DNA of 64,000 nucleotides from a bacterium (lineage in GTDB: Bacteria > Fidelibacterota > Fidelibacteria > Fidelibacterales > Fidelibacteraceae): assembly GCA_963676395.1 (NCBI GenBank), contig OY781066.1:96001-160000 (forward strand), in the 5' to 3' direction. Positions within the stretch are counted from its first letter, which is position 1. Every line of letters begins with the position of its first letter. Under the pieces are notes generated by a model. The model was not told where the DNA came from, ran no database searches, and was given only the letters and a program-made list of their open reading frames with translations. A program made the position numbers and the translations under genes. Shown in pieces: positions 14,962 through 46,570 of the stretch.

Positions 14962-15717
14962 TCAACACATCGACTCATCAACTAATTGCAGTTCACCTGC
15001 CATCGCAAAAGCATTAAAGGCAAATATTGAAATGTGTTTTACAGCTTCGTAGACCTTAAAATTATCTATAACTTTCTTAATATCTTCTGCTTGCTTGACT
15101 TCATTTGCAAATTTTGTTGCCAATTGATCTGCCATTACCGTATCTGGACATGCTACCGCTACAAGATCGGCATGACCAAAATTGGTAGAATGACCAAATT
15201 TCCCGGATGACGCGCAAAGCCCCAGTGGAGTATTCTCAGGGTATATTTTTAGATTTAACTTATTAGATAATGGATGTTCACCTGCGTAAAGTTTCACAGT
15301 AAGTTCTTCCATGACATCAATATATAGATCACCCCCATTTTCTACAATAATTTCATTAAAGGAAAACTTCTCCTTGAGCACCTCACCTATCTCCTGAGCA
15401 AACAATCCGGCTATACCCGCCATAGGACCAACCTTCGTAAGCTTTGAGCATTCGGCGAGCCGCGAAACCAATAAAGGTGCGGAATCTGATGTATTTATTG
15501 GTTCCAAACTTGTTTTGTACTGAGGGTTAAGTATAAAATATTGTTCAAAAATGTTTCTTAACGATCTGATCTTTTTCGCAAGAATATCAATAATATTTTT
15601 TTCGGGAGTTGTGTTATTAACATCGAATGCCAACCAAATATCACTTTCGAGATACGAGTAAGATAGTGTTCTAAATCGTTCCCCCATGTTATCGCGATAC
15701 CAACGGGGTTCGTACAT
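14962..15717 (-). CDS. UPF0280 family protein (ApbE-like superfamily)
   Basis: 'SLEP', 'VGPMAGIAG', 'IVENGGD', 'CASSGKFGHS.NFGHAD', 'AD..AT..AN'. Confidence 0.88.
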   Translation of the reverse strand: MYEPRWYRDNMGERFRTLSYSYLESDIWLAFDVNNTTPEKNIIDILAKKIRSLRNIFEQYFILNPQYKTSLEPINTSDSAPLLVSRLAECSKLTKVGPMAGIAGLFAQEIGEVLKEKFSFNEIIVENGGDLYIDVMEELTVKLYAGEHPLSNKLNLKIYPENTPLGLCASSGKFGHSTNFGHADLVAVACPDTVMADQLATKFANEVKQAEDIKKVIDNFKVYEAVKHISIFAFNAFAMAGELQLVDESMC

Positions 15718-15718
15718 G

Positions 15719-16864
15719 TTAATCTATGGCTTTGAGGTTTTTCAGTGATTTATTTTTCGGAAATAATTGCACCGGTTCAGAGATAAGAAATTCACCTTTT
15801 TCAATCTTTTCCTTTAAAATAAGAGCAATTTCTCTGGCTTTTTTAAGCGACGACATAGGAGTTGTAGGTATTAGCTTACCGTTAAATTTGATTTTACCGC
15901 TTCTCAACTCCTTGTAGTTAACTTTACCCAGTATGGGATTCCCCGGAGTTCCATAATCACGCACATAGGTTTCAATTTGCTCATTTCTTATGGATAGCCG
16001 CTTTGCCATCTCGGCGTCAAGCACCGGAATGGGAATACCGATGCCAACAAACATACTAACGCCATATTTTTGATAATAAGCTGCACGAATAAAGTCGGGA
16101 CTCATATCTTTCATATTACCTGTAACGGTCAAGGTACGTGAATGTATCAAAGGAATTCCGTGTTCATTCACCTCAGAATCACTGCGAAACTGGGTTCCAT
16201 TCCAAGTAACATAACCTTCTGCACCACCAAGAAAAATACGCGTACCCAAACCAATTGTCCTTAGTTCAGGATCATTAAGTAATGGACTCATTTCACCTGA
16301 TGTTGAGTAAGTTATATTGCCTAGCTCAGGTTTCAAAATGCCCATATATGTAAATTTTTTATCTTTGGTAGTGTTTGTAGCCGCAGGATAATTTTGATAT
16401 GCATTACGGGGATTATGCAAGATCATTTCATTAACGGTTTCTTTGGATATTTTCGCCTTTATCTCCTTGCGTGGATAACAATCTGTTCCTTTGCCGGTAG
16501 CGAGCAGGTCTACCTCATCACCTCTTATCAAAGCTTCGATAACATGCGCTCCTCCAAATGTAGGATCGTTTTCAGATTCCTGAGTGGCACCTATATAGGT
16601 GTCAACGGCAGCAATACCTCCCGAAACTTCAACGTTATTCAGAAAGATCTTTTCCATTCGCATTGCGGGTGTAGAATGTCCAAAATTAACAAATGCACCC
16701 GATGAACACATAGGTCCAAAGGTTGCAGTAGTAACCACATCCACTTTTTCGGCTATTGCTTCTGAAGACATCGTTTCAGCCAATACAGAAACCTCTTCAG
16801 CGGTCATGACCACTGCCTCTCCCTTTGCTATTTTCTCATTGATCTCTTTATATGATTTTGCCAT
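15719..16864 (-). CDS. Homocysteine biosynthesis protein / L-aspartate-semialdehyde sulfurtransferase (DUF39)
   Basis: 'EINEKIAKGEAVVMTAEE', 'VDVVTTATFGPMCSSGA', 'GTDCYPR', 'NPRNAYQNY', 'SPLLNDP', 'VGIGIPIP'. Confidence 0.9.
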   Translation of the reverse strand: MAKSYKEINEKIAKGEAVVMTAEEVSVLAETMSSEAIAEKVDVVTTATFGPMCSSGAFVNFGHSTPAMRMEKIFLNNVEVSGGIAAVDTYIGATQESENDPTFGGAHVIEALIRGDEVDLLATGKGTDCYPRKEIKAKISKETVNEMILHNPRNAYQNYPAATNTTKDKKFTYMGILKPELGNITYSTSGEMSPLLNDPELRTIGLGTRIFLGGAEGYVTWNGTQFRSDSEVNEHGIPLIHSRTLTVTGNMKDMSPDFIRAAYYQKYGVSMFVGIGIPIPVLDAEMAKRLSIRNEQIETYVRDYGTPGNPILGKVNYKELRSGKIKFNGKLIPTTPMSSLKKAREIALILKEKIEKGEFLISEPVQLFPKNKSLKNLKAID

Positions 16865-17274: not shown

Positions 17275-18312
17275 ATGAAACTCAAAGTTCATGAATATGA
17301 CCTACCGCTAAAGTATAAATTCGGTATCTCCCGCGAAACACGAACCGTCCAAAAAACCGCCATTATCGAGGTAATCGACGGCGATTATTCCGGATTTGGT
17401 GAATGTGTTGCAAATCATAAATATTATAAATTCACTATCGACATGATCAGAGATGATATGGCGTCGGTTGAAACTGATCTTAACAAGGTCGATATTATTG
17501 CTACTCCTCCCGCGGAAATTTGGGATATGCTCAATGATAAACTTAAGCACAATCCATTCGCTCAATGTGCTTTAGATATGGCCTTATATGATCTTTGGGG
17601 TAAAAAACAGGGGAAAGCGACCTATGAGTTATGGGGATTAAACCCGAAAAACAATCCCGTAACTGATTACACAATTGGAATTGATGAAACACCCATCATG
17701 ATCAAAAAGATGAAAGAATATGCCGATTGGCCTGTCTTTAAAATAAAATTAGGTACAGATCATGATATGGAGATCATGAGTGAATTACGCGAAAATACGG
17801 ATGCCATTTTACGGATTGATGCCAACTGTGCTTGGACAGCCGACCAAACCATTGAATATTCTCATCGTTTAAAGGAATTAAACGTAGAATTCATTGAACA
17901 AGCCATGCCTGCCGAAGCAAGTATAGAAGATATGAAAAAGGTTTATGAGAATTCAGCATTACCTCTTATCGCCGACGAAAGCTGTATTTCTGAAGAAGAT
18001 GTCGATAAATGCTACGGTTTATTCCATGGTGTCAATATTAAGGTCGTCAAATGCGGTGGTCTTACTCCCGCAAAGCGAATGGCCTTGCGCGCCAGAGAAT
18101 TAGGTATGAAAGTGATGGTGGGTTGTATGACAGAATCGACCGTAGGTATTTCGGGGATCGCTCAACTTCTTCCTCTTTTAGATTATGTAGACATGGACGG
18201 TCCAATTCTTCTTGCCAAAGATATTGCTACCGGCGTACGTATCAATAAAGGTGTCGTATCTTATTCCAAAATAAAAGGTAATGGTGTTGTATTAACCGGG
18301 TTCACCGAATAG
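17275..18312 (+). CDS. Dipeptide epimerase (L-Ala-D/L-Glu epimerase, enolase superfamily)
   Basis: 'FKIKLG', 'RIDANCAW', 'FIEQ', 'IADES', 'NIKVVKCGG', 'MVGCMTES', 'DMDG'. Confidence 0.92.
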   Translation: MKLKVHEYDLPLKYKFGISRETRTVQKTAIIEVIDGDYSGFGECVANHKYYKFTIDMIRDDMASVETDLNKVDIIATPPAEIWDMLNDKLKHNPFAQCALDMALYDLWGKKQGKATYELWGLNPKNNPVTDYTIGIDETPIMIKKMKEYADWPVFKIKLGTDHDMEIMSELRENTDAILRIDANCAWTADQTIEYSHRLKELNVEFIEQAMPAEASIEDMKKVYENSALPLIADESCISEEDVDKCYGLFHGVNIKVVKCGGLTPAKRMALRARELGMKVMVGCMTESTVGISGIAQLLPLLDYVDMDGPILLAKDIATGVRINKGVVSYSKIKGNGVVLTGFTE

Positions 18313-18320
18313 GAAAAACT

Positions 18321-18761
18321 ATGAGTGATATAAAAAATAATAAAGTACTTCTTTCTTGGAAAGTCCACATGGCTAAGCACAATATCTCACGAGCCATTTC
18401 AGCGCTGATTCTCATCTTGATTTGTGTTTACTTTGTTAACCTTACACTTGAGGATGGATTTTTAACCTTGGTTTCGTTTTTCGTTCTATTAATGATGGTT
18501 CTCCCCTACTATTTACCTAATACCTTTATCTTAAGCGATGAAGGAGTTGAAAAAAAAATGTTATTCTCAAAGCAGACACGTAAATGGAGTGAATTCCATC
18601 GCTATGAGGTTGGCAAGAATGCCGTTAATCTTTATACCATGAATAAAAAATCGCGCCTTGACAATTATCGCTCGTTTTTGATCATTTGTCATCAAAATAA
18701 AGATAAAGTGATAAAGATCGTTGAAGAAAAGCTTAAAATAAATGAGAAACGAGAGCCTTGA
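18321..18761 (+). CDS. Hypothetical membrane protein (2 TM plus PH-like beta domain)
   Basis: Two N-terminal hydrophobic helices, then 'FILSDEGV.......RKWSEF'; 8 bp after the epimerase stop. Confidence 0.7.
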   Translation: MSDIKNNKVLLSWKVHMAKHNISRAISALILILICVYFVNLTLEDGFLTLVSFFVLLMMVLPYYLPNTFILSDEGVEKKMLFSKQTRKWSEFHRYEVGKNAVNLYTMNKKSRLDNYRSFLIICHQNKDKVIKIVEEKLKINEKREP

Positions 18762-19125
18762 CAAATCGATAGAAGTAATTTTAAGAAACAATAAGGCATA
18801 TATCTAAAGAGAGACGAAAGGTTTATGTGATCAAATTTGCATAGTTACAATTTCCGCACATTCCAGAAAAAGCGATAGATTGGGCACTAAAGATCAAATT
18901 AGTTTAACTACCATAGCATATTTAAATCGATTAGAATATAGACTAGCTTAGCATGGAGTCTGTATTAATAAAAGGCTTTTCATAAAGATCGTAATCTTAG
19001 CGATAACCCACACCTACAAATAGAAATTTCATACGAAAAAATGCAAGCAAATAAGCAGCTAAACACACACAATTATTTAAACCATAGATCACTAGGAACA
19101 AAGCAAATCTAAGCTCTTTATTATA

Positions 19126-19154
19126 TTGTTCTTCGAACCTTTTATGCTTATATT
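19126..19154 (+). promoter_or_regulatory. Putative promoter of the membrane-complex operon
   Basis: TTGTTC-N17-TATATT, matching the other promoters in the window. Confidence 0.45.
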
Positions 19155-19231
19155 TTTCCGTTGTAGTAAATCATAGTACTCTTTAATATAGATTTTGAAT
19201 GTTACTATACCATTATTGGGGTTTATAAGGT

Positions 19232-19579
19232 TTGGAAGATAAAGTATTCGAACAAGAAATGATTGAAAAAATAGCTTCGACAGTAGTCAGACGTCGTTTA
19301 TCTGTGCCGGCTATCCTATTCATGGAAGTTTTAAAGCCATTATCGTTTTTTGGAGCCCAAACTTTGAATTTTTTTGGCCCAATTATTGAATCTCTTATGA
19401 AGAAAGAAAATCGATATTATGATTTTACTTCTTTCCTTGAAGAAAGAAAAAATATCGAAAAGATCCTTGTGCGTATTGAGGAACTTGAGAATGAGAGACC
19501 GCACCCCCCCCAAAAGAATAAAAAAAACAGAAAAAAAGATAAAAAAGACAAACATCATACATTGCAATTGGAGGATTAA
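19232..19579 (+). CDS. Hypothetical protein, first gene of the membrane operon
   Basis: 115 aa, TTG start; amphipathic 'VPAILFMEVLKPLSFFGAQ'; basic tail; stop abuts the next ATG. Confidence 0.75.
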   Translation: MEDKVFEQEMIEKIASTVVRRRLSVPAILFMEVLKPLSFFGAQTLNFFGPIIESLMKKENRYYDFTSFLEERKNIEKILVRIEELENERPHPPQKNKKNRKKDKKDKHHTLQLED

Positions 19580-20686
19580 ATGATGTTAAAACGTACAACA
19601 TGTTTACTGATCCTTCTATTGGGAGTGTTCAGCTTTGCATTTGCCGGCTTGGGAATCCATGCCGAGGCAGAGATAGGCGAACCGGAAGGCAGCATCGTAA
19701 AGATCAGCCTGACCCCGATTGAAGAAGCCAGTATTTACATTGTCGAAAAAAATACGGGTACACATAAGTGGTTGCCTGTGTTAGAAACTGCCAACATGGA
19801 GTTTGAGACGAATATTGACAATGAAGTTGCCACAACATTTAAGGTAACAGCATTGGACAGTGATCGTAAAATTCTTGCGACTGCAGTATCCGAGGCCGTA
19901 ACCACTCACGCAAAATGGTTCAACCATCTACGTTTGAACCGTTTTATCGCACTAATCGTGATTTGCGGTACCATCTTGTTCTATATTTCACGAGCAAGAA
20001 AGAACAAAAAGATTTATATGCGTCCCGTTGCCGGTCTGCAGGCTTTTGAAGAAGCCGTTGGTCGTGCCACAGAGATGGGGCGTTCGGTACTATTCGTACC
20101 CGGTATTATGGATCTTGATCAGGTTGAAACCATTTCCGGTTTGATCATTCTTGGACACGTTTCAAAAATGACAGCACGTTATGAAGCGGATCTAAATGTT
20201 CCTGTATCTCGTTCTTTGGTAATGGAATCAGGACGCGAAACGGTTCAAGCATCCTATATTTCCGAAGGTCGTCCGGATCTATATTCATCTAACATGGTTC
20301 AGTACTATACCGATGACCAGTTCGCCTTTGCTGCGGCTGTAGATGGTGTAATGCTTCGCGAAAAACCTGCTGCAGTATTTCTGCAGGGCAAGTTTTATGC
20401 GGAATCACTGATCATGGCTGAAACCGGTAACTCTATCGGCGCTATACAGATTGCCGGTACCGGATCACCTTCTCAGATCCCATTTTTTGTTACAGCTTGT
20501 GATTACACTCTTATCGGTGAAGAATTTTTTGCCGCATCAGCTTATCTTGGCGACGATCCTAAGCTTTTAGGTTCGATCAAAGGTCAGGATATTGTAAAAG
20601 GTATCCTTATAGCTGCAATCGGCTTGGGTGTAATTCTTGAAACATTTAATTTAAATTTCTTTAAAAACCTGTTCGCAGGGTCATAA
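19580..20686 (+). CDS. Signal peptide + Fn3-like domain + TM + DUF6754-like domain
   Basis: 'YMRPVAGLQAFEEAVGRATEMGR', 'QFAFAA', 'AESLIMAETG..GAIQIAGT...QIPFF...CDYTLIGEE.FAASAYL' recalled as the DUF6754 signature. Confidence 0.75.
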   Translation: MMLKRTTCLLILLLGVFSFAFAGLGIHAEAEIGEPEGSIVKISLTPIEEASIYIVEKNTGTHKWLPVLETANMEFETNIDNEVATTFKVTALDSDRKILATAVSEAVTTHAKWFNHLRLNRFIALIVICGTILFYISRARKNKKIYMRPVAGLQAFEEAVGRATEMGRSVLFVPGIMDLDQVETISGLIILGHVSKMTARYEADLNVPVSRSLVMESGRETVQASYISEGRPDLYSSNMVQYYTDDQFAFAAAVDGVMLREKPAAVFLQGKFYAESLIMAETGNSIGAIQIAGTGSPSQIPFFVTACDYTLIGEEFFAASAYLGDDPKLLGSIKGQDIVKGILIAAIGLGVILETFNLNFFKNLFAGS

Positions 20687-20702
20687 ATAAGAGGAAAACA
20701 AC

Positions 20703-21632
20703 ATGTTTTGGAAAAGAACAATTCCAGCTATCATTGTTGCTGCAGTCGGTGTGATCATGCTGCTGTCATGGTTCATCCCTCATGAACCTTTTGGTTCGCT
20801 TGAGACCCATGCGACACAATGGTACGATATCATCGCAAGTTTTGCGATGATCCTCGGAGCTTTAAACTTGCTAAGACTCCAAGGAAATAAAGTCATTAAA
20901 CAAAAGAAAGGTTGGCCTTATGCCTTAGCAGCCGTCATTGCCTTCTTTATGACATTAACCTTTGGCTTTGTTGTTAAAGGTGGATTTTATCCCAACATAA
21001 CATCAGTTGGTGATAATCCCGAAGCCGTATATCTAAAAATCGCTCAAGTGATCGATACAGACGGAAACGTTAGTGAAGAAGATGTTGCCGAAGTTCGCGC
21101 TTTGTATGCAATCCCCGGTCCCGATGGAGAAAAAGTACTTCTTCATAAGGCCGTTGTCTCTAAAAGAATGGCTCAAAAAGTCGTTGATGAATTAAATACT
21201 CTAGGTGCTACAGCTTCGGTGGGTGAATTAAAATGGGGCTCTCATGTTCAAGGTAATAAAACATACTACAGCTGGGTATTCTACTCATTCTTCACTCCCC
21301 TATCAGCAACGATGTTTGCTTTATTAGCTTTCTTTGTTGCCTCAGCTTCTTACCGTGCATTCAAAATACGTAATGCTGAAGCAACGGTTTTACTGGTTTC
21401 CGGTATCCTTATCATGCTTGGTCGTGTTCCTTTAGGTGCATATCTAACAGCATGGACACAAAACATTCCATGGCTATCCTGGTTCCATTTACCGGTAATA
21501 CAGGAATGGTTATATCAGTACCCGAATGCCGCAGGTGCCCGTGCCATTATGATCGGTATCGGTCTTGGTATCGTTGGTACATCACTTCGCGTGATCCTCG
21601 GTATTGAAAAATCATTCATGGGAGGTGATTAA
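20703..21632 (+). CDS. Polytopic membrane protein with an inserted soluble domain
   Basis: About 6 hydrophobic helices; 'PLSATMFALLAFFVASASYRAF', 'MLGRVP', 'RAIMIGIGLG....LRVILGIE'; RBS GAGG. Confidence 0.85.
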   Translation: MFWKRTIPAIIVAAVGVIMLLSWFIPHEPFGSLETHATQWYDIIASFAMILGALNLLRLQGNKVIKQKKGWPYALAAVIAFFMTLTFGFVVKGGFYPNITSVGDNPEAVYLKIAQVIDTDGNVSEEDVAEVRALYAIPGPDGEKVLLHKAVVSKRMAQKVVDELNTLGATASVGELKWGSHVQGNKTYYSWVFYSFFTPLSATMFALLAFFVASASYRAFKIRNAEATVLLVSGILIMLGRVPLGAYLTAWTQNIPWLSWFHLPVIQEWLYQYPNAAGARAIMIGIGLGIVGTSLRVILGIEKSFMGGD

Positions 21633-21633
21633 A

Positions 21634-22602
21634 ATGGCTAAAAACAGATCAAAAGCATATACGAATTTAAGCAATAATTTTAAAGACATTCTTGAAAAGT
21701 TCGTAAACTTTCTTGCTAAATTGGACGGTCTTGATCGCCGAATCATCTTCTTGATTATTGGCCTTGTAGTGCTCTTCCCTCTCCTTGTTCCACTGGGTTT
21801 ACCCATTGAAACAACACAGTTGACCGAAGATGCTTTCTACGCTATCGATGAACTACCTACAGATGCCAAAGTATTGGTGTCATTTGAATACGGTCCTTCG
21901 ACCAAACCCGAGATTCACCCTATGGCTATTTCCGTACTACGTCACCTTTTCTCTAAAGGTAACAAAGTTGTAGTAATGTGCCTGTGGCCTGACGGGTTAT
22001 TTATGGCTAATGAAGCTCTAGATCTCGTAGCTAATAAAGAATTTGGACTTAAATATGGTGTTGATTATGTGAACCTCGGCTACCGTCCCGGCAACGAAGC
22101 GATCATTAAAGGTATTACAAAGAGTTTTAAAGCTAACTTTTCTATCGACTCAAAGGGTACCAACATCACAGAGATTCCCATTATGCACGATGTACAGACA
22201 GCTAAAGATGTTGATTTCATCTTCTCATTGTCTGCCGGTTATCCCGGAGCCATCGAATGGGTTCTATATGCCGGTGATCCTCTGCAAGTCCCCGTATCCA
22301 GTGGTAATACGTCCATTCAGGTCAACCAGTTACTTCCTTATGTGAAGTCCGGGCAAATGAGAGGTATTGTTGCAGGTATGCCGGGTGCGGCAGAATATGA
22401 GACTATGGTCATTCGTAAACTCGAAGAGAACATTGGTCCTATTACAGATCACGCAAGAACACTATTACCTAACTTCAAAGAAAGACGAAATGCAACAAAG
22501 TTCATGGATGCGCAATCCATTGCTCACCTTGTGATCGTTCTTTTTATTATCCTGGGTAATATTTCATTTCTTGTTAAACGTAAAAAACAGAAAAAATACT
22601 AG
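21634..22602 (+). CDS. Membrane-anchored alpha/beta domain protein (N- and C-terminal TM helices)
   Basis: ATG at 21634 after GGAGG preferred over TTG 21604; 'DRRIIFL', 'YGVDYVNLGY', 'PYVKSGQ..G...G..GAAEYE', 'MDAQSIAH'. Confidence 0.85.
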   Translation: MAKNRSKAYTNLSNNFKDILEKFVNFLAKLDGLDRRIIFLIIGLVVLFPLLVPLGLPIETTQLTEDAFYAIDELPTDAKVLVSFEYGPSTKPEIHPMAISVLRHLFSKGNKVVVMCLWPDGLFMANEALDLVANKEFGLKYGVDYVNLGYRPGNEAIIKGITKSFKANFSIDSKGTNITEIPIMHDVQTAKDVDFIFSLSAGYPGAIEWVLYAGDPLQVPVSSGNTSIQVNQLLPYVKSGQMRGIVAGMPGAAEYETMVIRKLEENIGPITDHARTLLPNFKERRNATKFMDAQSIAHLVIVLFIILGNISFLVKRKKQKKY

Positions 22603-22612
22603 GAGGTAATTC

Positions 22613-23452
22613 ATGTATATAGGAATTTTAGGTGCATGGATCGCCGTCTTTTTGACATTATCCATCTTGAGTTATCTCTATGAAGACAATGTCTTCTATA
22701 AGCTGGCAGAGCACATCTTTGTTGGTGTTTCTGCTGCACACTGGGCAACCATTGCTTTTTGGAACCAGGTACAGCCTAACCTATTTGGTCGTTTATGGCC
22801 ACAAGCGGAAGTTGCTTCACTTGAAGGTTTCCAAAAGTTTTGGTATGGTATTTACCACGGTCTGCATGCTGTTTTCGGTAAGATATTTCCCGAAGCTACT
22901 GTAAACGGAGTTCTGTATCGTGGTATTGGTGATCAGCCTCAAAACCTCAGCTACCTTTTTGCTTTTGTTTTGGGAGTATTTATGCTTTTCCGCCTTATCC
23001 CTAAGATTGGTTGGCTAAGTCGCTGGTCATTAGCATACGTTATTGGTATGGCTGCCGGTCTTCGTCTTTATGGTTACATGAGTTCGGATGTTATCGGTCA
23101 GGTACACGCAACGATGTTGCCATTATGGACAGGTAATCTCGGTTCAAGTATCAACAATATCATCTTGATCGTAGGTGTATTGACCGGACTATTCTATTTC
23201 TTCTTCTCTGTAGAACACAAAGGCGCGCTGAAAGTTGTATCCAGGATCGGTATTTACTTCCTGATGATCTACTTTGGTGCATCATTCGGTTTTGCCGTTA
23301 TGGGTCGTATTTCATTGCTTATCGGTCGTTTTAATGACCTTATCCTTTATTCAGGGAAAGAGTACGGATTCGCTACGCCCATCATTCTTATCTTGATGAT
23401 CGTAGTTCTCGTTCTCACCACAAGAAAGAAAAAGCCTGAAGAAGAAGTCTAG
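22613..23452 (+). CDS. Polytopic membrane protein, last gene of the operon
   Basis: RBS AGGAGG; about 7 TM; 'SYLYEDNVFYKLAEHIFVG', 'YFFFS.EH', 'FGASFG..VMGRISLLIGR'. Confidence 0.85.
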   Translation: MYIGILGAWIAVFLTLSILSYLYEDNVFYKLAEHIFVGVSAAHWATIAFWNQVQPNLFGRLWPQAEVASLEGFQKFWYGIYHGLHAVFGKIFPEATVNGVLYRGIGDQPQNLSYLFAFVLGVFMLFRLIPKIGWLSRWSLAYVIGMAAGLRLYGYMSSDVIGQVHATMLPLWTGNLGSSINNIILIVGVLTGLFYFFFSVEHKGALKVVSRIGIYFLMIYFGASFGFAVMGRISLLIGRFNDLILYSGKEYGFATPIILILMIVVLVLTTRKKKPEEEV

Positions 23453-23504
23453 TCATAGACGAATAAGTGATTAATCAATTAATCGACTTATGATTCAAAT
23501 AAAT

Positions 23505-23532
23505 AAAAACCTCGAAGAAATTCGGGGTTTTT
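23505..23532 (+). terminator. Rho-independent terminator of the membrane operon
   Basis: AAAAACCTCGAA-GAAA-TTCGGGGTTTTT. Confidence 0.85.
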
Positions 23533-23713
23533 TATTTCCAACCTTAATGCTATTTAGCTGAAATCATCTCAATGTAAATATTGCTTTAATCCAATTTGTC
23601 ATTCACTCATTTAAATATTAATTTCCCTATTACGCCTATATTATTAACTGCATGAAATATTATTTCCGAATTTCATGTCATTTTATTATTTTTATACATT
23701 AAATGGAATAAAC

Positions 23714-24500: not shown

Positions 24501-27500
24501 TTATTTCAACAATAACATCTTAGATGAAGCTTGAAAATCACCGGCAATCATTTTATATACATAAACACCACTTGGAAAAGCCGCCGCATTAAATGTGATA
24601 GTATGATAACCCGGATTTTGCAATCCATCAACAAGCGTTGTTACAAATTTTCCATTGATATCAAACAATGAAATAGTCACATTTTCAGCACTTGGTATAG
24701 AATAATTGATCCGAGTAATCGGGTTAAACGGATTTGGATAATTTCCGGATAGTTCAAATTCGGTAGGAATATCCACGGATTCAAGTTCAATATCAATATA
24801 ATAAGTGAGTGTATCCGAGTTTGTAAACAATCCGGCTTTATCAATAGCAGAGACACTCCAAAAATACTCTCTCCTATTCCCCATTCTTCGATCATCGGAA
24901 AATGTTTTTGATGTTGACAAAGAATAATCATAGGATGAACCGGTATACCAATAATTCATTTTATACGAAACTTCATCACCCGGATCGGGATCTACCGCTT
25001 CAGTCCATTCAAAATATGGATAACGGGTTGTTTGATATGAATTATGGTTAGGACTCAATTGTCGTGGAGCCGAAGGAGCTTCATTATAAGTATTCACATA
25101 TAAATCTCTGATACTCGAAGATCTTTTAACAGCTCCGGACATATCTATAACATCGACATACCATTTATAAGCAGCGTTCTCTATCAAATCATATGATAGT
25201 TCACATTCTGGCTCTATGCCTATATGGACACATTCAACACTGTCCAATGAAGATCCAATATACAACTTATAAATCAAGCTATCACCGGGATCCTTATCTA
25301 CGGCTTCTTCCCAAGAAAATATCGGCTTCAGGGTATCGGAAATAAAACCATTTTCGGGTGCTATCAATTCAAAATCCAATGGTGGTACATTTGAGGCATT
25401 GATCGTAAAAGTACTGATTTTTGAAACATAAGATATTGTCCCATCAGAACTATTCAAAAACACCTTACAATATACATTTTTATTTTCCGGCAAGTCCCTT
25501 GTTAGCGTGCAATATGTAGGGGAAGCAGGGAATAAATATAATGAGTCGGGATCACTAAATTCAGGTGTAATATCAAACATCACTTCAGCTTGCGCATTTA
25601 TCGGCGCCATCTCCCATGTAATCGTAGGACGATTGGTTCTCAATATATCAAAACAATTTGGACTATTTATATCAAAATCACCTGTATTCTCATGAATCGT
25701 GATCATATCACTTTTAACTTTATTTTGATTTATACCACCGGTTTCTGCCATTAGTGTAATACTATAATTATCGGTGTTACTAAATACATGAACAGCGCTA
25801 TCGCCTTCGGCGCTTGTGCCGTCCCCAAAATTCCATATATAATTATAATGACCTTCACTGATTGGAGAATCCACCCAGAATTTTACCTCAAATCCGGGGT
25901 AACCATTTGTATAATCGGAAGTAAAATCTAAATTCTGGACTTCTACCGGTTCCCACCTCATGGCATCAAAAGCCAGTTTTTCACTGCCTACTCCGGTAGA
26001 ATCGCCCAAATATACATAATCCGATCCATCGTTTCTAAACATATATTTACCTAGGGACACCCACTCGTCATTATATGCGGATTGATCGATCATAACATGT
26101 CGTTTACCGGCAGCATGATGAATACGATAAAGAGCACCCGTGGCTTCAGCATTAGCGGGTATATAAGCAAATATTTCATAATACGATGCAGAATCAACAT
26201 TCGGCGTCCAGGTTACATAACACCGATCACTTTCATCGGCCTCGGAATAGGTCCACCAATGATGACCATCATATCCACTTAGCGAACTATGATAATGACG
26301 CATAGGAACCGTATTTCCTTCGGCTTTCATATAAAAACCATCCTTAAACTGCTTATCATCAATAACAGAATCAGGATATTCAGGCATATTATAAGAAGTA
26401 GCAATACACCAGGGCATGCTTGTATAACCACTATAAGCATAATTTAAACTAGCGTGACCATGATTATAGCCGGGCCAATCATAATAAACGGCATCACCAT
26501 AATAATTCGGCCAAGAAGAGCTATTTCTATCTCCATAAGGATCATTTGCAATAATTGTTCTTTGACCACTTGATACACGACCAAGTCCTACAATAAGGTG
26601 ACCACTTCCTGATAAATAGTTACATATAGAATATGGATGCTTCTTATCTATTTCGTTTCTTACCGTAGTCCAGTTAGTACTCCAGGTTTGATGTGCGGGC
26701 ACACCGTGTTTTTCATAGTAGCTGGCCATTTTGGAATTAGGTGAACCTCCTGACCACATATATCCCATACCCCCATAACATGTGTAACAATAGGATTGAC
26801 TGCTATTACAATCTCTGTATGAGGAATCGAAATAGTAGCCATTATAATAATAACGTTCATGAACATAAGCACCGTAGTTACTCAGATTCCCAAAACCTGA
26901 TACAAAAGGCCATTCAGGAATACGCTTATAATAAGCCAAAACCATTGCAGCCGTTGTAGGAGCACAAGATGAATAACCTCTTTGACCCGGGGTATCATAC
27001 ACTTGGTTCACATAAGGAACACTTAAAAATGTATCGGCCGCAGAAGCCTCATAAGCAAATGTTTTCGCTTCGGTCTGTAGCTCAATTCGCGTTTCATTAT
27101 TCTTAAAAAGACGATTTTCGCTTTGAGTATTTTTTATCTTTCCATCGGTATAAATGATAAGTTCACTATTCTTGTTATAGAAAGCTTGATCCTTAATACC
27201 CAAGCTCTGCTGAAATACCTGCTCCCCATTTTCCTTGCAAGAAATGAGCTCCCGACTTTCAATAGATGTTTCATCAATTATATTTATTTTTGTATAGGTA
27301 TAATCAGCATTTTGTTTAGACCAATGCAAATCACAGGCAGTACCAAGATCGCGTGAGTTAGCATTTCGATGATCATAGATCATTAAATGGCCATCTAAAG
27401 TCTGAAATGAAATATATCGCGAATCGACTGACCACTGGGGAAAAGCATTACCGTACTTACCTGATGTAATTTGTACCTTTTCTTCTGAATAAAGATCAAG

Positions 27501-27998
27501 AATCCATAATTGATCATGCTCATCATTATAAACGACTTTATTTCCATCAGGTGAGATCGGAGCAATATTTGCGTAAACCCCAATATGGTATTTCCTGGTA
27601 TTATCACCATCTTTAACATAGATGTCATTCCCGATCGTATATGCGATCATCCCATTATTGGAAAATGATATTTGCCCTGCCAAATAGGTATCTTCATGTA
27701 GTTTGATGATTTTCTTTGTTTCTATTTCAAGAAGTGCGGGAGCTTCGAGTCCACCGGGATTTTCCCGATATTTAAATCCCACATATTTTTCATCGGGTGA
27801 AAGTGTAAATAAACGACCGGCTCCCGGAGAAGAAATCAGTTTTTCCGCAACTTCGGCATTCTTGATATAAATAGCCGAATAGAGTGAATCGCTATAAAGA
27901 TATGAATGATCGACGGGAACAATATTCACTGCAGAGAATAAGATTGCCGTGGATACAAGCAAAATAAAGGTAATTCGCTTTGTTAATAATGAAGACAT
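24501..27998 (-). CDS. Large secreted multidomain protein: TolB-like beta-propeller, C39-like peptidase, golvesin/Xly-CBD-like, PKD, Fn3-like repeats, T9SS/FlgD-type C-terminal domain
   Basis: 'SPDGNKVVY'/'PQWSVD' propeller; 'VPYVNQ...SCAPTTAAMVLAYY', 'GHLIV', 'NDPYG'; 'WVSLGKY.F', 'FDAMRW'; 'WNFGDG'; 'LSGNYPNPFNP...SGVYVYKM......KMLLLK'; ATG 27998 after GGGAG. Confidence 0.85.
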   Translation of the reverse strand: MSSLLTKRITFILLVSTAILFSAVNIVPVDHSYLYSDSLYSAIYIKNAEVAEKLISSPGAGRLFTLSPDEKYVGFKYRENPGGLEAPALLEIETKKIIKLHEDTYLAGQISFSNNGMIAYTIGNDIYVKDGDNTRKYHIGVYANIAPISPDGNKVVYNDEHDQLWILDLYSEEKVQITSGKYGNAFPQWSVDSRYISFQTLDGHLMIYDHRNANSRDLGTACDLHWSKQNADYTYTKINIIDETSIESRELISCKENGEQVFQQSLGIKDQAFYNKNSELIIYTDGKIKNTQSENRLFKNNETRIELQTEAKTFAYEASAADTFLSVPYVNQVYDTPGQRGYSSCAPTTAAMVLAYYKRIPEWPFVSGFGNLSNYGAYVHERYYYNGYYFDSSYRDCNSSQSYCYTCYGGMGYMWSGGSPNSKMASYYEKHGVPAHQTWSTNWTTVRNEIDKKHPYSICNYLSGSGHLIVGLGRVSSGQRTIIANDPYGDRNSSSWPNYYGDAVYYDWPGYNHGHASLNYAYSGYTSMPWCIATSYNMPEYPDSVIDDKQFKDGFYMKAEGNTVPMRHYHSSLSGYDGHHWWTYSEADESDRCYVTWTPNVDSASYYEIFAYIPANAEATGALYRIHHAAGKRHVMIDQSAYNDEWVSLGKYMFRNDGSDYVYLGDSTGVGSEKLAFDAMRWEPVEVQNLDFTSDYTNGYPGFEVKFWVDSPISEGHYNYIWNFGDGTSAEGDSAVHVFSNTDNYSITLMAETGGINQNKVKSDMITIHENTGDFDINSPNCFDILRTNRPTITWEMAPINAQAEVMFDITPEFSDPDSLYLFPASPTYCTLTRDLPENKNVYCKVFLNSSDGTISYVSKISTFTINASNVPPLDFELIAPENGFISDTLKPIFSWEEAVDKDPGDSLIYKLYIGSSLDSVECVHIGIEPECELSYDLIENAAYKWYVDVIDMSGAVKRSSSIRDLYVNTYNEAPSAPRQLSPNHNSYQTTRYPYFEWTEAVDPDPGDEVSYKMNYWYTGSSYDYSLSTSKTFSDDRRMGNRREYFWSVSAIDKAGLFTNSDTLTYYIDIELESVDIPTEFELSGNYPNPFNPITRINYSIPSAENVTISLFDINGKFVTTLVDGLQNPGYHTITFNAAAFPSGVYVYKMIAGDFQASSKMLLLK

Positions 27999-28099
27999 GT
28001 ATACTCCCAAAAATTATTAAGTTATTTTCGCTGAATAATACTATATTACAAAACGAAAGTAAACTGTAAATAATATTAATTTCTAAAATAGGATATTTA

Positions 28100-32847: not shown

Positions 32848-32921
32848 CGGGGTGTAGCGCAGCTCGGTAGCGCGCTTCGTTCGGGACGAAGAGGCCGTAG
32901 GTTCAAATCCTATCATCCCGA
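32848..32921 (+). tRNA. tRNA-Pro (anticodon CGG)
   Basis: Acceptor CGGGGTG/CATCCCG, D stem GCGC/GCGC, anticodon arm CTTCG-TTCGGGA-CGAAG, T arm GTAGG-TTCAAAT-CCTAT; CCA not encoded. Confidence 0.97.
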
Positions 32922-45139: not shown

Positions 45140-46570
45140 ATGAGCAAAGGCGTTACACCTCAATCGCAAGATTACGCAAGATGGTACACGGATGTGGTCC
45201 AAAAGGCCGAACTGGCCGATTACTCCCCTGTTAAGGGTTCCATGGTCATCCGTCCCTACGGTTACGCTCTGTGGGAAAACATTAAATCCAACCTTGATCG
45301 CATGTTCAAAGAAACCGGTCACGTTAATGCCTATTTCCCCATGCTCATTCCTGAAAGTTTTCTAAAAAAAGAAGCCGATCATGTGGAAGGTTTTGCTCCG
45401 GAATTGGCTGTTGTCACTCATGGTGGCGGCAAAAAATTAGAAGAACCGCTCGTTATTCGTCCTACTTCCGAAACCATTATCTGGTCGATGTACAAAAAAT
45501 GGATCAAATCCTATCGCGATCTACCACTTCTGATCAATCAATGGGCCAATGTTGTTCGCTGGGAAATGCGTACGCGACTTTTCTTGCGTACCACAGAATT
45601 CCTATGGCAAGAAGGTCATACCGCTCACGCAACTGCAGAAGAAGCGATAGAGGAATCTCATAAAATGATTGGTGTATACAGCGATTTTGCCGAAAATTAC
45701 ATGGCAATGCCTGTGATCGTCGGTACAAAGACCGAAAATGAAAAGTTCGCCGGTGCCGTTGATACCTTTACCATCGAGGCCATGATGGGCGACAAACGTG
45801 CCTTACAGTCCGGAACATCACATTACCTTGGTCAAAACTTTGCCAAGGCTTTTGATGTAACTTTCCAAAATAAAGACAATGAGCAAGAATACGTTTTTGC
45901 CTCATCCTGGGGTGTTTCAACCCGCTTGGTCGGTGCTTTGATCATGACCCACGGTGACGACAAAGGACTTATCCTACCCCCTATGCTGGCTCCTTATCAA
46001 GTTGTGATTGTTCCTATTTATCGTGATGACGAAGCCAAAGCCAAGGTTATGCCTTATGTTAAAGAACTAACTGATTCCATGGATGCTCAAGGTATCCGTT
46101 ATCATATTGATGATCGCGAAACCTTATCACCCGGTTTTAAATTCAACGACTGGGAAATGAAAGGCGTACCGCTACGCGTTGAAGTCGGTCCTCGTGATGT
46201 AGACGGCGGCAAACTGGTCTGTGCCAAACGCCTCACCGGCGACAAAGCCATCATCACAAAAGAAGAATTCACCGAAAGTGTTAAAAGCATATTGGATGAG
46301 ATCCAAACAAGCATGCTTGAAAGCAAAAAAGCCTTCCGCGAAGAAAACACAACAGATATTACTTCTTACGATGAATTAAAAGATGCAACCAAAGATGGCG
46401 GTTTCGCACGTGCTTTCTGGGCAGGCTCGAATGATGATGAAAAACGTATTCAGGAAGAAACTAAAGCCACTATACGCTGTATCCCATTTGAACAACCCGG
46501 TACCGAAGGTGTTTGTTTTTATACCGGTGAAAAAACTACAAAACAGGTTATTTTAGCTAAATCGTATTAA
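45140..46570 (+). CDS. proS: Proline--tRNA ligase (eukaryote/archaea-like type, no INS editing domain)
   Basis: 'IRPTSET', 'QWANVVRWE', '[14 protein letters not shown]', '[10 protein letters not shown]', 'ATIRCIP', C-terminal 'AKSY'. Confidence 0.97.

Follow-up and report, generated by a model that had tools for sequence, protein, structure and literature searches.

A DUF6754 membrane gene set of Fidelibacteraceae linked to a GlmL-like actin-fold ATPase: a candidate translocation machine

Energy-coupling factor (ECF) transporters, and the mycobacterial Mce systems with MceG, use one energising ATPase for several membrane modules. GlmL is an accessory protein of coenzyme-B12-dependent glutamate mutase, and Or-4 (NF040744) is a related protein of ornithine degradation. 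The locus described here recalls features of both. It is a run of five genes, called A to E below, in a 64,000-nucleotide stretch (the window) of the genome of a Fidelibacteraceae bacterium (GenBank assembly GCA_963676395.1, contig OY781066.1, positions 96,001 to 160,000; this genome, G000, is 95% complete). B is an end-to-end member of DUF6754 (PF20539), a catalogued family without assigned function. To the ECF and Mce systems the locus and its relatives are alike in gene logic, known here from genes: several diverged modules go with one ATPase, which is sometimes encoded elsewhere. The ATPases of those systems, however, are ABC proteins with Walker and signature motifs, whereas the one linked to this locus has the actin fold, and no ABC, ECF or MCE match was found. 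With GlmL the linked ATPase shares the ASKHA fold family (GlmL/MutL; PF13941, NF040745), but it differs in having an extra C-terminal region, a partner of ~375 residues, and gene neighbors that are membrane proteins and not a mutase. In our judgement the system belongs to none of the known kinds. That it is a real, conserved, ATPase-linked membrane system we hold with considerable confidence; that its genes in the window form the membrane part of a translocation machine of a kind not yet described, dependent on that ATPase, is a proposal for which the scales, as we judge them, stand about level.

The five genes and an accessory sixth are as follows (open reading frames, ORFs; lengths in residues).
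18321-18761, + strand: accessory protein with two hydrophobic segments, hence two-transmembrane (2-TM), 146 residues.
19232-19579, + strand: A, ORF of 115 residues with TTG start, for a small protein that is soluble or amphipathic.
19580-20686, + strand: B, ORF of 368 residues, PF20539 DUF6754.
20703-21632, + strand: C, ORF of 309 residues, polytopic membrane protein.
21634-22602, + strand: D, ORF of 322 residues, counted from the ATG behind the GGGAGGTGA site.
22613-23452, + strand: E, ORF of 279 residues, polytopic membrane protein.

The link to an ATPase was found in the relatives. Our samples comprise 201 genomes of the phylum and 96 loci, 20 of the latter from 20 genomes of different families. 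In each of these 20 the distance from A or B to a PF13941 gene is at most ~4 kb, and clustering placed PF13941-like ORFs in 51 of the 96. In one locus (L015) the gene between A and B encodes a protein of 1006 residues, of which the N-terminal 484 match PF13941 (MutL/GlmL; E 4e-125); the ATPase and its ~375-residue partner are fused there. Most Marinimicrobia have the ATPase pair (~607 and ~375 residues) directly 5′ of A, and in Zixibacteria-type loci the pair adjoins the first of the tandem modules. In the window's genome it is found ~1.07 Mb from B (G000:C1, ~1,186,011-1,188,987), directly 3′ of a cdsA-like gene (named by homology to a PF01148 cluster).

In the phylum sample DUF6754 and the ATPase occur together in 127 of 201 genomes and neither occurs in 69, while DUF6754 stands alone in one (G136, 66% complete) and the ATPase alone in four (G104, G120, G130 and G139; 72-87% complete), counts that overstate independence since genomes within a phylum are kin. 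A second-phylum sample was taken as the 61 genomes around that of locus L076, labelled Zixibacteriota. DUF6754 is present in all 61 of these, with 2-6 matches each, and so is PF13941, with a single match in 59; of the exceptions, one genome has two PF13941 matches and the other has the gene split over two contigs. DUF6754 and the GlmL-like ATPase thus go together nearly without exception; the operon does not stand by itself, and the link points to an ATP-dependent system. The five-gene boundary is too narrow, with the 2-TM gene lying inside the window and the ATPase and its partner outside.

An earlier note, made from the sequence letters alone, had read the operon as a secondary transporter or channel, plausibly for amino acids or peptides. 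An ion-coupled carrier or channel that needs no ATPase would suit four large membrane proteins without ATP-binding motifs, the conserved charged residues in or near the transmembrane segments of C, D and E, and a genome in which no ATPase gene is adjacent; OppD/F-like ABC ATPase genes flank 18 of the 96 loci, and a dipeptide-epimerase-like gene is found upstream here. Against it stand the near-perfect co-occurrence with the GlmL-like ATPase in two phyla and the ATPase gene beside the module in all 20 relatives, which leave a self-contained carrier or channel unsupported. No secondary-carrier family was matched at the sequence level, and in profile comparison neither B and D nor C and E showed the homology expected of an inverted-repeat carrier. 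The proposed cargo fares no better: the epimerase neighbor is kept only in L036 and L037 among 76 loci, and in none of 20 other loci. We consider a carrier of this kind improbable, and among the readings that involve transport a secondary one for peptides has the least in its favor.

The full length of the linked ATPase aligns with PF13941 (430 bits). Its scores fall short against the GlmL model NF040745 (237.1 bits; cut-off 475), TIGR01319 (161.9; cut-off 204) and the Or-4 model NF040744 (230; cut-off 600), and the glutamate mutase E subunit, PF06368, has no match in G000. Since it lies below the GlmL and Or-4 cut-offs and no mutase E subunit was found, the ATPase is not a bona fide GlmL, nor a helper of glutamate mutase here.

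We examined how far the gene set is conserved. DUF6754 was found in 128 of the 201 phylum genomes and in 12 of the 13 of one family (f11) whose genomes measure 0.8-1.1 Mb. Four other families (0/30, 0/9, 0/6 and 0/6 genomes) and 14 control genomes gave no match. Among the 20 phylum loci A and B are always present, and C, D and E are present in 19, always in the order A-B-C-D-E and on one strand. Clustering identified A in 42 of the 96 loci, which between them hold 86 complete B-C-D-E sets. Tandem copies are frequent, the B-C-D-E unit being what repeats: 23 of the 93 loci that hold B have at least two B genes, and 14 have three. In L015 the genes C-E were not found after B. The ORFs that follow B there (L015:1-5035) are of 224, 624 and 268 residues, with an open-ended fourth of 328; none matches the window proteins, and by eye they resemble restriction-modification or defence genes. 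A mobile insertion may have displaced C-E.

Homologues of the 2-TM protein lie directly 5′ of A in 12 of the 96 loci, in several lineages, and the 2-TM gene of the window (18321-18761) is for this reason part of the system. A and the 2-TM gene each occur once, next to the first module or to the genes for the ATPase pair, and are not repeated per module; because there is one copy of each despite the repeated modules, we count both as accessory parts.

A scan of one genome per species yielded at least 618 encoding stretches, which by their labels lie in metagenome-assembled genomes of Marinimicrobia/Neomarinimicrobiota/Fidelibacterota, Zixibacteria, Eisenbacteria, WOR-3, Stahlbacteria, Latescibacteria and Gemmatimonadota. 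A profile search for the family among 1.84 billion representatives gave 24,978, 8,354 and 1,738 matches at E ≤ 1e-3, 1e-10 and 1e-30, numbers that overstate the family because the profile includes Fn3 columns and giant Fn3-repeat proteins top the list. The sampled genomes and loci bear out the earlier claim of a conserved heteromeric membrane gene set, whose genes co-occur across genomes and phyla. The claim of an undescribed class also held up, in that neither Pfam, NCBIfam and PDB profiles nor the fold of B led to a characterised complex. In the searchable literature the family DUF6754 goes unnamed and no description of the system was found; searches for PF20539, PF13941, IPR046642 and GlmL returned only unrelated "glml" strings among the best 25 of 869 results.

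The match of B to PF20539 covers residues 110-365 and profile positions 2-257 of 257 (E 1e-114; 382.3 bits, cut-off 27), as expected from the earlier label DUF6754-like. A hydropathy scan found three hydrophobic segments in B (a signal or anchor, a transmembrane helix and a C-terminal transmembrane helix), five in C, two in D, five in E and none in A, in agreement with the two polytopic, two anchored and one small protein that had been predicted. D has a transmembrane segment at each end (residues 30-48 and 296-314), with a domain of ~240 residues between them and a basic tail. Because of this tail and a conserved DRR before the first segment, its topology is probably N-in/C-in, with the large domain outside; this extracytoplasmic domain would, judging by the pattern of its sequence, be of alpha/beta type. 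The DUF6754 domain of B, in turn, is predicted to be cytoplasmic, because positive residues follow the transmembrane helix and the Fn3 part is exported. C is 37-64% identical to its 19 phylum homologues and has a variable extracytoplasmic insert at residues ~100-178. E has the conserved charged motifs YKDNPFYK.AEH and FFFSKEHKG.

The motif scan found no Walker A, LSGGQ, CxxCH or CxxC in any of the proteins, so the earlier statement that Walker, ABC signature, heme and Fe-S motifs are missing stands; C and E have no cysteine at all. The families of A, C, D and E have no Pfam or NCBIfam model, and neither these proteins nor the 2-TM protein matched a family of either collection above cut-off. 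At E ≤ 0.01 the sole match of C was a sub-threshold one to DUF5336, and the L015 homologue of the 2-TM protein matched PF10756 (bPH_6) under the cut-off (E 5.6e-4). Known transport classes were examined individually. No ABC_tran or other ATPase family was found in A-E or the 2-TM protein; C and E matched no ABC permease family (e.g., BPD_transp_1) in Pfam or NCBIfam and no secondary carrier or channel family (MFS, APC, SSS, OPT/PTR etc.) among Pfam sequence models; and the test for Rnf and Nqr complexes gave no RnfA/D/E/G or NqrB-E match in Pfam or NCBIfam and no CxxC or CxxCH. PDB sequence-profile searches with B and D returned only noise (E ≥ 0.16). In the ESM Atlas the neighbors of E were all unnamed clusters, and the domain of D had no usable named match. 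An internal pseudo-symmetry pairing B with D and C with E was tried and rejected: hhalign probabilities were 0.3-2.7% with profiles of 20 and 85 sequences, and no homology was found.

Two models of B were examined. That of the window protein (20 sequences) has a predicted local distance difference test (pLDDT) score of 69, falling under 50 in the conserved stretch 253-312. In it, residues 24-111 take the Fn3 fold (VIA Z 11.8, root-mean-square deviation 1.7 over 82 residues, with 7jgu_A), confirming the Fn3-like ectodomain proposed earlier; Pfam fn3 has no sequence match in the window B. All 50 fold-search rows shown for this model start at 21-25 and end at 108-114, and nearly all are of Fn3 type by title. 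The second model is of a compact homologue of 296 residues from locus L097 (85 sequences; pLDDT 90, predicted template modelling score 0.82). It begins with two helices, continues with an alpha/beta domain in which six parallel strands alternate with helices (77-258) and ends in a long helix. Its fold neighbors are phosphoglycerate kinase and sirtuins (Z 10.2), GT-B glycosyltransferases, transhydrogenase domain III (dIII) and RCK/KTN domains, and on this model the DUF6754 domain is a Rossmann-like fold of generic type, close to no protein in particular. The likeness to dIII and RCK/KTN consists in superposition at Z 9.0-9.5 (4j16_C, 9.5; 3fwz_B, 1id1_B and 4gx0_A, 9.3-9.4; 4ei2_A, 9.0) and in a position against the membrane. 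These Z values, however, are no better than those for phosphoglycerate kinase or sirtuins, B has no GxGxxG nucleotide-binding loop, and there is no sequence relation. The glycines of B that are invariant across the 85 sequences map, in our reading of the secondary-structure listing, to the ends of strands 1, 4, 5 and 6, and invariant acidic and polar residues come after them; we read these strand ends as the place where, as in Rossmann folds, B might bind ligands or partners.

These features could also belong to a membrane-bound enzyme or sensor, in which B would bind or convert a small molecule, for example a nucleotide or cofactor, and the GlmL-like protein would be its chaperone or reactivase, no transport being involved. 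The best fold neighbors of B are nucleotide-binding Rossmann domains (phosphoglycerate kinase, sirtuins, GT-B, dIII and RCK), residues that never vary (Gly, Asp, Glu, Thr, Gln and Cys) cluster at its strand ends, and GlmL is described as a reactivating chaperone (legend in PMC4682846), said to serve glutamate mutase. Yet B has neither GxGxxG nor a P-loop motif and its fold matches are non-specific, and three more conserved membrane subunits with an outward domain fit a purely cytoplasmic reaction poorly. We regard this explanation as quite unlikely.

A complex prediction was run with full-length B, C, D and E of the L097 module (990 residues, each with its own alignment), B being taken as partner. 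The values with B were 0.67, 0.66 and 0.75, against 0.00 and 0.00 with B replaced, and 0.79 with D replaced by an unrelated protein, a pattern that weighs neither way on binding.

Only certain lineages have the Fn3 ectodomain of B. Twelve of 19 homologues of B in the phylum measure 285-297 residues, and these short forms have the two N-terminal helices, DUF6754 and the C-terminal helix. Longer forms (120 listed of 633) carry Fn3 domains, PQQ-like beta-propellers or RHS repeats, with one PMT_2 glycosyltransferase. The ectodomains differ between copies (Fn3, PQQ-like and FG-GAP propellers). The DUF6754 protein of locus L070 (L070:7500-9884), of 795 residues, has a C-terminal S49 (SppA/NfeD-like) peptidase domain (E 1e-43); C, D and E genes were not detected at that locus. 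Two homologues of C (L091:12749-14521 and L102:12653-14428; 591-592 residues) bear repeats of FG-GAP/VCBS type (E 4e-28), which presumably sit in the loop that faces outward.

Among neighbor genes, cdsA was found in 23 of the 96 loci and a YegS-like lipid kinase gene in 13, each in one phylum only. In L078 and L105 the ATPase genes have ExbB, ExbD and TonB genes next to them. Such genes also come after the module in the WOR-3-type loci L080, L090 and L106; in the window's genome they lie ~5 kb beyond the partner gene (names read from ORF sequences). In the three WOR-3-type loci the genes 3′ of E encode a DUF4388 protein, four small proteins without Pfam family, ExbB, two ExbD and TonB, a run that may form a larger conserved unit. 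Around the ATPase pair of the window's genome (L112; G000:C1:1178000-1197000) the ORFs that follow it are, by eye, a transglutaminase-like lipoprotein, SurA/PpiC-like and CtpA-like proteins and ExbB-ExbD-ExbD-TonB, with recF- and dnaN-like genes close by (names again read from ORFs).

From this setting one could argue for an envelope machine, powered or assembled by the ATPase, that would act on a lipid, glycan or protein of the surface or membrane, by exporting, anchoring or maintaining it, or would connect the layers of the envelope. The ectodomains are modules of protein or glycan interaction (Fn3, BamB-like PQQ, FG-GAP, RHS), single fusions to an S49 peptidase and a PMT_2 glycosyltransferase exist, cdsA and the lipid kinase gene stand beside the ATPase genes (cdsA also here), and ExbBD-TonB and other envelope genes are near. 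Many diverged copies per genome with one ATPase are, however, more typical of uptake systems that differ in specificity, and the cdsA link is restricted to one phylum; we think such a machine rather unlikely.

The same ectodomains, with the DUF4388 and ExbBD-TonB genes after the module in WOR-3-type loci, might suggest a cytoskeleton-linked device for adhesion or motility, in which the actin-fold protein would polymerise and move modules bearing outward adhesins; the ATPase has a weak match to MreB-like_C, under its cut-off (E 0.0035). But the ATPase is nearest to the GlmL/hydantoinase branch and not to MreB or ParM, many core modules have no ectodomain (the 12 of 19 with short B), and the system is kept in genomes of planktonic size (0.8-1.1 Mb), so that we regard this device as extremely improbable.

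Our preferred reading is that of a translocation machine, to which we give an even chance. Its membrane unit would be assembled from B, C, D and E and would work with the GlmL-like actin-fold ATPase and the ~375-residue partner. The ATPase pair would dock on the cytoplasmic face, most plausibly at the conserved Rossmann surface of B; C and E would relay ATP-driven movements, such that cargo crosses the cytoplasmic membrane, and the outer domain of D together with the variable ectodomains would handle that cargo. A single ATPase would be shared, with one module to drive in this genome and several in those of other phyla. As to direction we favor uptake, of nutrients that have already crossed the outer membrane, because several modules sharing one energising unit are known from ECF and Mce importers. 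Further hints of uptake are the ExbB/ExbD/TonB genes near the ATPase genes or the module, the TonB-dependent receptor matches of two ~1-Mb genomes in which BPD_transp_1 has none, and the ectodomains that differ from copy to copy. That the system is an importer is nevertheless a tentative suggestion. The broadest form of the proposal is possible but doubtful: a new class of primary-active transporter, in which an actin-fold ATPase and its partner, in place of an ABC, P-type or rotary ATPase, are shared by 1-6 interchangeable four-subunit modules, and which would be the chief means of uptake across the inner membrane in several large uncultured phyla, streamlined marine cells of SAR406 type among them.

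Several points weigh against the translocation machine or against uptake by it, beside the kinship of the genomes counted above. The five proteins hold no known transport, channel or nucleotide-hydrolysis signature. A fusion search found no fused A, D-ATPase or B-ATPase protein; longer forms of D number only six, three of them with zinc-ribbon domains, and no longer forms of A were found, which is weak evidence. With the L097 model of B, Foldseek found nothing in the PDB at E ≤ 0.001, and the exhaustive structural search gave a flat list (Z 10.2-8.7) of generic Rossmann folds. Propeller and Fn3 ectodomains are unusual for solute binding by an importer and would equally fit a role in the envelope or in adhesion, and the cdsA and lipid-kinase neighbors beside the ATPase genes could indicate lipids. 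Characterised relatives of GlmL are described (figure legend in PMC4682846) as enzyme-reactivating chaperones and not as transport motors. Finally, two ~1-Mb genomes in which the system is retained show 4 and 6 matches to TonB-dependent receptors and none to BPD_transp_1, and the same two have 3-5 MFS and 14-17 ABC ATPase matches; because they hold other carriers, the argument that the system fills the place of a missing importer is weak.

The module is not rare, with 128 of 201 and 61 of 61 genomes in two phyla, and its retention in genomes of 0.8-1.1 Mb, together with codon use like that of EF-Tu and proS, suggests that it is important. Should the proposal hold, an entire type of membrane machine would have escaped study, with four subunit families without characterised relatives and an actin-fold ATPase, and an ASKHA-driven transporter would be a new principle of energy coupling in membrane biology. 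To know the cargo would alter how metabolism is modelled in Marinimicrobia, Zixibacteria, WOR-3 and kindred uncultured groups, which matter for carbon cycling in ocean and sediment.

Two further features frame the operon.
19148-19168, + strand: conserved AT-rich block, possible promoter element, ~65-85 nucleotides 5′ of A.
~23501-23537, + strand: intrinsic terminator 3′ of E, a hairpin followed by a T-run.

The gaps A/B, B/C, C/D and D/E are of 0, 16, 1 and 10 bp, the ORF finder offering an alternative TTG start for D at 21604 that would overlap C, and ribosome-binding sites of GGAGG type precede B, C, D and E. The terminator hairpin has a folding energy of -14.4 kcal/mol (z = -4.2; none of 200 shuffles as stable) and is absent from the output of a consensus terminator scan. 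On all three counts, five tightly packed co-directional genes, strong ribosome-binding sites and one clean terminator, the earlier note was right. As for its promoter-like element, a scan for sigma-70-like promoters gave 27 matches against 25.2 expected, which is chance level, while the 21-nucleotide AT-rich block is nearly invariant in the window and its two closest relatives, L036 and L037 (close relatives only); the claim of a promoter upstream of A is weak. The context of the TTG start of A is kept in both relatives as well.

Codon use in B-E (GGT 0.52-0.76, CGT 0.36-0.71, ATC 0.36-0.60, TTC 0.32-0.50) is among the highest for these codons of the 50 long ORFs in the window. It is close to that of proS (45140-46570; 0.62, 0.48, 0.48 and 0.52 in the same order), a likeness already pointed out in the note, and also resembles that of the two EF-Tu genes of the genome. 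This bias fits high expression, as far as codons can tell. Both EF-Tu genes are full-length and lie ~15 kb apart (G000:C1:482748-483938 and 498525-499715).

Between the 2-TM gene and A is a non-coding gap of 470 bp (18762-19231), in which no Rfam family was matched; over the whole window the sole Rfam match is a tRNA at 32848-32921. The spacing of the two genes is 13 and 35 bp in L031 and L032, of other genera (tblastn coordinates), and ~175 bp in L036.

The epimerase-family enzyme and the 2-TM protein reported just upstream are indeed there (17275-18312 and 18321-18761). The enzyme belongs to the MR/MLE family and scores under the cut-offs for DgcA and for L-Ala-D/L-Glu epimerase. Further upstream, on the - strand, 15719-16864 encodes a full-length HcyBio (PF01837) enzyme of sulfur incorporation in homocysteine biosynthesis (E 1e-142), beside a 251-residue ORF (14962-15717) of no Pfam family. 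The gene downstream of the operon is YjbQ-like. Convergent with the operon, on the - strand, 24501-28010 encodes a protein of 1169 residues with Peptidase_C39_2-like, Golvesin_C and PKD domains that ends in a type IX secretion C-terminal sorting domain, and which is probably a secreted or surface protein.

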